A stretch of DNA of 41,926 bases from IMG/VR virus record IMGVR_UViG_3300045988_155081, positions 1-41,926 of that record. One strand, written 5' to 3'. Made by a program: the position numbers and the translations under genes. The DNA comes from a virus. Every line of letters begins with the position of its first letter. The first letter of the stretch is position 1. Of the stretch, positions 31,600-31,945 are shown in pieces. The notes under the pieces were generated by a model. That model saw only the letters and a list, made by a program, of their open reading frames with translations. It had not been told where the DNA came from and ran no database searches.

Positions 31600-31908
31600 A
31601 ATGCAAAAAAAACAAAGGAGTGGGCGACTTTTGGTACGGTGTCGCCCAAACCGCATAAAGGAGTTATAAATGTACAAACAACAATGCCGAAGCAACACTA
31701 TTTGATACAAAGCAAAGGAGTTGGGCAATTAGGTTGGTTCATCGCCCTAACCGCTTATATGACAGTATGTTTTACACAACAAGGGAACTTTCGAGATAAC
31801 CTTATCATAACCAACCCATATAAGTCGGAAATCGCGGTCGCGGCAAGGTTTAACCTCGCTACGCAATTAGTAACCAATGTGTTTTTATGTCAGGAGTAAA
31901 CGTTGATT
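31600..31908 (-). ncRNA. ~310-nt non-coding leader of terL (candidate structured RNA)
   Basis: Lies between the promoter at 31917..31945 and terL. No SD-led ORF. Contains three ACTCCTTT copies and long-range complementarity (GGTTGGTT / AACCAACC). Confidence 0.4.
31605..31648 (-). terminator. Hairpin plus U-run just upstream of the terL start codon (non-canonical terminator or attenuator)
   Basis: Minus strand reads tgggcgac-accgtaccaaaa-gtcgccca. Eight nt (ctcctttg) follow, then TTTTTTTT. Confidence 0.35.
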
Positions 31909-31916
31909 ACTCTTTG

Positions 31917-31945
31917 ATATTACCACCAACGCCCACTTTTGTCAA
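31917..31945 (-). promoter_or_regulatory. Consensus promoter upstream of the terL leader
   Basis: Minus strand reads TTGACA-aaagtgggcgttggtgg-TAATAT (17-nt spacer, TGg). Confidence 0.65.

Follow-up and report, generated by a model that had tools for sequence, protein, structure and literature searches.

What occupies the long gap in front of the terminase gene of an uncultured gut phage, and does it act on the gene that follows? We examined this at the terL locus of IMG/VR record IMGVR_UViG_3300045988_155081, a complete gut-phage genome of 41,926 bp with a circular assembly, which we refer to in its entirety as the window. The gene terL (29752..31599, minus strand; 615 aa; PHROG 38, large terminase) is the first gene of a minus-strand late operon, and an SPP1-type portal is the next large gene after it. 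Read on the minus strand, 352 nt separate terL from a 48-aa open reading frame (ORF) upstream. An earlier note on this DNA had described this gap as a ~310-nt non-coding leader behind a consensus promoter and had considered a packaging site (pac/cos), a translational control element and a structured RNA. Our analysis bears out the leader, ~311 nt long on the terL-sense strand, and indicates that the hairpin closest to terL is half of a predicted H-type pseudoknot whose stems covary across four lineages. Reading a mechanism from the anatomy of the leader, we see it as a cis-acting element that gates terL translation or expression, a tentative interpretation to which we give slightly less than an even chance.

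The structure nearest terL, pseudoknot B, spans 31622..31655 on the minus strand. Stem 1 (S1) pairs UGCGGU (31655..31650) with ACCGUA (31640..31635), and stem 2 (S2) pairs GGGCGAC (31647..31641) with GUCGCCC (31628..31622); loop 1 (L1) is UU and loop 3 (L3) is CCAAAA (31634..31629). S2 is the core of the hairpin at 31648..31621 that the earlier note had placed 8 nt before a U8 run (31605..31612), itself followed after 5 nt by the terL AUG, and these coordinates are confirmed. Bases just 3′ of the 5′ strand of this hairpin pair, in each lineage, with a segment 2–5 nt upstream of it. In L034, S1 is GCAG:CUGC, L1 UUU, S2 AACGGUU:AACCGUU, and L3 CCAAA. L041 has the same S1, L1, and L3 (GCAG:CUGC, UUU, and CCAAA) around an S2 of GCGGU:ACCGC, and L040 combines an S1 of AGGUAG:CUACCU with UUCGU as L1, GGUGGGGU:ACCUCACC as S2, and AAAAAA as L3. 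All four have the T4 gene 32-type stem order S1-5′, S2-5′, S1-3′, S2-3′ with sterically feasible loops (S1 4–6 bp, L1 2–5 nt, S2 5–8 bp, L3 5–7 nt). The sequences of S1 and S2 differ between the four terL lineages (65–100% identity) and their pairing is retained; beyond the A run of L3, hardly any pseudoknot position is identical in all of them. The pseudoknot ends 13–36 nt before the AUG in every lineage, the linker is U-rich, and the AUG lacks a Shine-Dalgarno sequence (SD) in three of the four.

Several comparisons support this pairing. When the upstream segment is shuffled within each lineage, an S1 of the observed length is obtained with P = 0.004, 0.003, 0.006, and 0.027, and these shuffles are independent of the structural alignment. 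MAFFT misaligned the short pseudoknot cores, and a manual register was imported with artificial anchor blocks and N padding. In this hand-registered alignment 73 of 73 cells are paired and 12 of 14 pairs are changed on both sides, counts inflated toward the structure because the alignment was fitted to it; none of 500 shuffles reaches the observed pairing, and slid controls pair at 29–49%. In a genome-wide scan for H-type pseudoknots on both strands, pseudoknot B ranks first with 14 bp. The second-best candidate (13400..13362, minus; 13 bp) lies 26 nt before an SD-less ATG at 13335 and was rejected as probably due to chance, because relatives break both of its stems. Among natural variants of the window leader (42 copies from public contigs, collapsing to 19 distinct sequences of 96–98% identity), changes within the pseudoknot region are confined to L1, L3, and the optional outermost U-A pair of S2. 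G.U pairs occur in S1 of the window, in S2 of L040, and in a second hairpin described below, and they appear only when the terL-sense strand is read; the structure therefore lies on the terL-sense RNA. Of the options in the earlier note, the structured RNA is thus the one that gains: both pseudoknot stems and the second hairpin covary, G.U pairs are present, and polymorphisms avoid the stems.

Intermediate lineages were found by a search of 5.8 billion proteins, and their contigs were retrieved. The full leader is present in two contigs whose terL is 92–93% identical to that of the window (L039, L042). At 74% identity (L034, L035, L036) the promoter is followed by a leader of ~82 nt, at 73% (L041) by one of ~74 nt, and at 65% (L040) by one of ~212 nt. 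Seven contigs at ≤59% (L037, L014, L043, L018, L019, L031, L032) have no leader, and terL there abuts or overlaps a small upstream ORF. Comparison of the terL-upstream regions, which the earlier note had proposed, thus reveals covariation in four lineages and a leader confined to the nearer ones, a distribution that marks it as a likely lineage-specific insertion. Its 3′ ~80 nt are common to all four lineages. Searching GenBank phages with the leader by blastn gave no match, and tblastn with terL returned only relatives of 22–26% identity. Pattern scans of IMG/VR for an L034-type loop produced chance matches only, none with terL, and scans combining the pyrimidine-rich motif upstream of pseudoknot B with a terL start returned only the same phage group.

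The leader is preceded by a sigma-70-type promoter (31917..31945, minus) composed of TTGACA (31945..31940), a 17-nt spacer, and the extended −10 element TGgTAATAT (31925..31917). It scores 10/12 with the TG in a promoter scan, in agreement with the earlier note; its hexamers are unchanged across the 19 natural variants, and L034, L041, and L040 carry a promoter at the same relative position. We infer that transcription starts near 31910. A 5′-terminal hairpin, GAGUAA-UCAACGU-UUACUC, is predicted at the leader start (31894..31912, minus). The predicted folding energy of the whole leader is −87 kcal/mol (z = −3.3 relative to shuffles; 0 of 100 shuffles as good), and two polymorphisms in its central long hairpin convert U.G pairs to U-A pairs. 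Checked across the natural variants, neither strand holds a credible or conserved ORF: an 86-aa plus-strand ORF is frameshifted by one-base insertions, and an 11-codon plus-strand ORF is cut to four codons in several variants by a C-to-T change that places a stop at codon 5. The U run varies between U6 and U8, so an upstream extension of terL from a TTG at 31728 and a coupled upstream ORF ending at AUGA were both rejected. Homologue alignments begin at residue 1–5 of the protein started at ATG 31599. As the earlier note had stated, no GGAG-like SD lies 5′ of this AUG, whereas most genes of the phage have AAGGAG-type SDs.

Two further units, each with a consensus promoter, a short non-coding RNA, and a canonical terminator, are found upstream on the minus strand, at 32943..32829 (RNA of ~80 nt with an exposed UCCUCCU) and 32617..32405 (RNA of ~175 nt). 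The sequence CAAAAGTGG has four exact copies in the genome, three of them within 450 nt upstream of the leader; positions on the minus strand are 31933..31941, 32275..32283, and 32356..32364, with a one-mismatch copy at 32944..32952. Copies, one of them mismatched, occur at three of the tandem promoters but are placed differently relative to the hexamers, and they could represent an operator or chance.

A second structural module precedes pseudoknot B in the window. Hairpin A (31723..31747, minus) has the strands GGGCGAU and AUUGCCC around the loop GAACCAACCUA, and its homologue in L040 (GGGUUGA and UCGACCU around GAGCCAACAUUA) keeps seven of seven pairs, four of them changed on both sides. 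Hairpin A is a paralogue of the pseudoknot B module, with ~68% identity (judged by eye) over 50 nt, and ACUCCUUUG follows both. The earlier note had reported long-range complementarity between GGUUGGUU and AACCAACC, which proves real: the distal strand UGGGUUGGUU (31809..31818, minus) pairs with AACCAACCUA (31739..31730) in the loop of hairpin A, forming a long-range pseudoknot of 10 bp (shuffle P = 0.0006). The equivalent pairing in L040, UGUUGGUU:AGCCAACA, retains 8 bp (P = 0.05) and differs by one compensatory and one G.U change, covariation seen in this one relative.

The pyrimidine-rich motif ACUCCUUU (ACTCCTTT in the DNA) is present, as first described, in three copies, which lie within 108 nt of the leader and all on the minus strand. 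Copy A (31721..31714) is predicted to be single-stranded just 3′ of hairpin A, copy B (31664..31657) is the conserved motif just 5′ of pseudoknot B, and copy C (31621..31614) lies between pseudoknot B and the U run. The whole window holds nine copies against 1.3 expected, a number reached in none of 100 shuffles, and the six copies outside the leader are reverse complements of the SDs of opposite-strand genes. ACUCCUUU resembles the 3′ end of 16S rRNA because it is the exact reverse complement of the preferred SD of the phage (AAAGGAGU; AAAGGAGT). This likeness, on which the earlier note had based its idea of an anti-SD mimic, holds; the mimic itself loses ground when lineages are compared. 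Motif B reads AACUCCUUUA in the window and L040, AACCCCCUUA in L034, and UUCCCCCAAG in L041, so that two of the four lineages carry CCCCC where the others have CUCCU, although L034 and L041 genes use ordinary GGAG/GAGG SDs.

The Rfam scan foreseen in the earlier note returned no family for the leader, either at the gathering threshold or at E ≤ 10. The best local match is to RAGATH-5 (RF02685), at 18.6 bits against a gathering threshold of 50 bits and over model positions 15–40 of 53 only; true members score 51–71 bits. We do not assign the element to RAGATH-5, of which it looks like a compact, sub-threshold relative. The RAGATH-5 hairpin GGGCNGC/GCNGCCC with the loop ACCG...AAAG is reproduced by the window (UGGGCGAC ACCGUACCAAAA GUCGCCCA) at nearly all conserved positions, whereas L034, L040, and L041 lack it and do not match the model. 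Common to both are a C-rich tail 3′ of the hairpin, an upstream CGG that pairs with the loop CCG in the same H-type stem order, and a location in non-coding gaps upstream of genes in uncultured gut phages. The flanks of RAGATH-5 (5′ CCGGAuACCcUGGC; 3′ GCCCCAcCaCCC, GCCCCAcC) are absent from the window, which has UAUGCGGUU and ACUCCUUUGUUU in their place, and loop 1 measures 2 nt in the window versus 11 nt in RAGATH-5. RAGATH-5 is also invariant in sequence and multi-copy, unlike the terL pseudoknot, which keeps only its structure across lineages, and it precedes SD-bearing genes, unlike the terL leader.

A pattern built from the RAGATH-5 consensus matched more than 106 IMG/VR stretches. Across 61 distinct copies, the base preceding the upstream CGG and the one following the loop CCG covary (39 paired versus 24 expected), so that RAGATH-5 has its pseudoknot stems in the same order, with 11 nt in loop 1. 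This covariation suggests a pseudoknot that the structure line of the Rfam model does not contain. RAGATH-5 is very abundant in IMG/VR gut-phage contigs (L130–L209), with tandem intercistronic copies (for example, L143 928..4782 and L195 3108..7135); it was not found in 399 Clostridia genomes, and the papers searched contain no description of it.

Other known elements share parts of the anatomy. The T4 gene 32 operator is the cooperative binding site of the single-strand-binding protein gp32, which thereby controls the mRNA that encodes it. Like the terL leader, it has a compact H-type pseudoknot in which loop 1 is short and an A-rich loop runs across the minor groove, and an unstructured A/U-rich stretch farther downstream in which a phage gene starts; in the terL leader, that gene is a terminase and lacks an SD. 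The preQ1-I riboswitch, too, is an H-type pseudoknot of small size; its loop 1 is rich in U and its loop 3 in A, and a start site or terminator follows directly. The terL pseudoknot has this layout and placement, but its S2 is 5–8 bp rather than 3–4 bp and it has almost no invariant nucleotides. No nucleotides lie between S2-5′ and S1-3′, and hence there is no ligand pocket, unlike in preQ1-I. Neither preQ1-I nor other pseudoknot riboswitches gave an Rfam match at E ≤ 10, and conservation of the ligand contacts was not found. Nor was there an Rfam match to phi29-type pRNA (RF00044), and the phage has an ordinary TerL with its SPP1-type portal. A curated family does occur in the same late operon: GP20-a (RF02991, 50–56 bits) lies just after the portal gene in the window (27750..27839, minus), L034 (4948..5038), and L040 (3921..4009). 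Like the terL leader, it is a late-operon cis-regulatory leader of this phage group, placed immediately before a start codon in the same GCAUUAUG context, but its fold and sequence differ and it ends in a normal SD. Judging from the GGAGCAUUAUG at the end of GP20-a, the start of the downstream gene is probably ATG 27749 rather than 27800.

Our preferred interpretation builds on a conserved core of ~80 nt comprising the single-stranded AACUCCUUUA motif, the H-type pseudoknot with its A-rich L3, the U-rich linker, and the SD-less AUG. In the window lineage, the hairpin A module, a paralogue of this core, lies ahead of it, and the loop of hairpin A forms the 10-bp long-range pseudoknot. The pseudoknot and the flanking pyrimidine tracts may constitute an operator or a landing platform, and binding by a protein or by the 30S subunit could determine use of the SD-less terL start. 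The seemingly constitutive promoter would then be gated after transcription has started, and translational control by the leader is plausible on this anatomy. Besides the structure itself, gating is favored by the two canonical terminators that lie just upstream, whereas the hairpin and U run before terL fail terminator criteria, and by GP20-a, another cis-regulatory leader in the same operon, conserved in relatives. Other observations weigh against it. Predicted accessibility around the terL AUG is unremarkable, and L040 has a weak SD (AAGGA), so the absence of an SD is not universal. The U run 3′ of the hairpin is present in all lineages and fits attenuation as well, and the RAGATH-5 relatives precede genes with an SD. 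The leader is known from four lineages in accessible public data, and their structural alignment was registered by hand.

The U run raises the idea of a transcription attenuator, in which the pseudoknot or hairpin would stop or pause RNA polymerase before terL and late expression would need a phage antitermination factor or pseudoknot-modulated termination. A consensus promoter directly before 30 kb of late genes calls for some gating farther down, the hairpin has a U-rich run behind it in four of four lineages (the U6 of L034 abuts the stem), and further promoter-to-hairpin/U modules lie at 32943..32829, 32617..32405, and 3845..3993. The layout also recalls intrinsic-terminator attenuators and lambda-type late leaders (PR′-6S RNA-tR′), in which a promoter that is strong and constitutive is followed by a few hundred non-coding nucleotides and then, before the late genes, by a hairpin with a U run, but the hairpin before terL fails terminator geometry and no Q-like or N-like factor was recognized. 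Intrinsic terminators have a G+C-rich stem, a small loop, and a U tract within 0–2 nt; in the window the loop measures 12 nt and a 9-nt, C-containing spacer (ACUCCUUUG) separates the stem from U8, which is why the terminator scan does not list this hairpin. The stem of L041 measures 5 bp and its U run is interrupted, in L040 four C's precede the U run, and the S2 stems of L034 and L041 reach only about −5 kcal/mol. The arrangement is thus non-canonical in three of four lineages, L034 being the sole one in which the U tract abuts the stem, and we consider attenuation possible but unlikely. Somewhat less likely is an RNA processing or stability element, in which the pseudoknot would stand in the way of exoribonucleases or mark where processing fixes a stable 5′ end of the late mRNA, as intercistronic RAGATH-5 copies may also do. 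The local match, with its common loop sequence ACCGUAC..AAAG, the shared stem order and covarying NCGG:CCGN′ pairing of RAGATH-5, its intercistronic placement in up to six copies per 4 kb, and a pistol ribozyme between two cistrons of the same genome speak for such a role. The match nevertheless lies far below the threshold, is missing from the other three lineages, and involves a motif for which we know of no function.

The exposed motifs raise the idea of a trans-acting or dual-function small RNA whose three ACUCCUUU seeds would pair with AAGGAGU SDs on other mRNAs, of phage or host, and repress these, in the manner of the Firmicutes RsaE/RoxS-type small RNAs with C-rich motifs. Three exact copies in predicted single-stranded linkers behind their own promoter, the AAGGAGT SDs of eleven mostly non-structural phage genes, and the UCCUCCU of another unit upstream agree with it, and terL, having no SD, would escape the repression. 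Of the RsaE/RoxS pattern, promoter and unpaired motifs are present, but there is no canonical terminator to define a discrete RNA, and the CCCCC of L034 and L041 is not an anti-SD seed. Duplication of the hairpin module, moreover, explains copies A and C, and we hold this explanation to be improbable. Still more improbable is a DNA packaging site (pac/cos) bound by terminase, the option of the earlier note that found no support. The leader does adjoin terL and contains repeated motifs and hairpins, and no small-terminase gene is recognizable nearby; yet compensatory changes and G.U pairs point to selection on RNA, two lineages whose terminase belongs to the same family lack the 5′ 230 nt of the leader, the assembly of the genome is circular, and related contigs end at window positions 32650..33930, 1–2.3 kb upstream of the leader. 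We attach equally little probability to a functional plus strand, on which the AAAGGAGT copies would be true SDs of micro-ORFs in an antisense transcript opposing terL expression. In three lineages, as we interpret it, motif B on that strand is followed after 5–7 nt by an ATG (window MYKQQCRSNTI*; L034 MYVQQ...; L040 19 codons), and a weak promoter-like site lies at 31558..31586. Against this, the peptide shrinks to four codons in several natural variants, ACG replaces ATG in L041, the peptide sequence is not conserved, and the G.U pairs of the conserved helices become C.A mismatches on the plus strand.

The contig ends form a pattern of their own. Those of about ten related assemblies (38–46 kb) all fall within 32650..33930, especially 33290..33425, many of them in a G-rich island, and one of these contigs (L001/L020) begins with a Nextera adapter. 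The cluster could reflect physical genome ends or assemblies breaking off where the DNA is difficult to sequence or hypervariable. A 55-nt overlap of the termini of the window itself was dismissed as a k-mer artefact.

Upstream of the leader, the 48-aa ORF (stop at 31954..31952) and a 73-aa four-cysteine ORF (32098..32319) lie on the minus strand with strong SDs and a consensus promoter of their own. In the 73-aa family, the N-terminal MTNKERQ and four cysteines are invariant (also L034 729..953 and L041 2663..2866, as well as L058, L061, and L063); the gene lies directly upstream of the terL-leader promoter in this group and in unrelated small-gene contexts in other phages. No Pfam or PHROG family was found for the protein, and its AlphaFold model is poor (pLDDT 60). 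Some close relatives (L009, L010, L011, L015, with terL of ~1012 aa; P0005, P0006) carry an insertion of ~390 aa in terL that corresponds to Pfam PF14890 and that one source labels 'intein/homing endonuclease'; the terL of the window lacks it. In leader-less relatives, tRNA-like sequences (GGTTCAAATCC / GGTTCGATTCC) occur a few hundred bases upstream of the terL module (L014 ~2000..2240; L037 ~1540..1600). The pistol self-cleaving ribozyme (RF02679, 60.5 bits; 34640..34715, plus) lies between the plus-strand genes 33979..34632 and 34742..35029, in the same module as a gene for an FtsK/SpoIIIE-like ATPase.

That pseudoknots in 5′ leaders can act as regulators is known; to our knowledge, none has been described for a terminase gene. 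The terL leader is a candidate new regulatory RNA, matching no curated RNA family. More speculatively, and with low probability, the terL-leader pseudoknot and RAGATH-5 may be two branches of one unrecognized phage RNA class, compact H-type pseudoknots with pyrimidine-rich tails before cistrons that would define or protect mRNA ends (as exonuclease-resistant or self-processing elements) or load ribosomes without an SD, here timing synthesis of the packaging enzyme. The leader may offer a first way into the function of RAGATH-5, an orphan motif found across hundreds of gut-phage contigs, and it would be a concrete target for mutation with which to learn how an uncultured gut phage, working from a seemingly constitutive promoter, times expression of its packaging motor.
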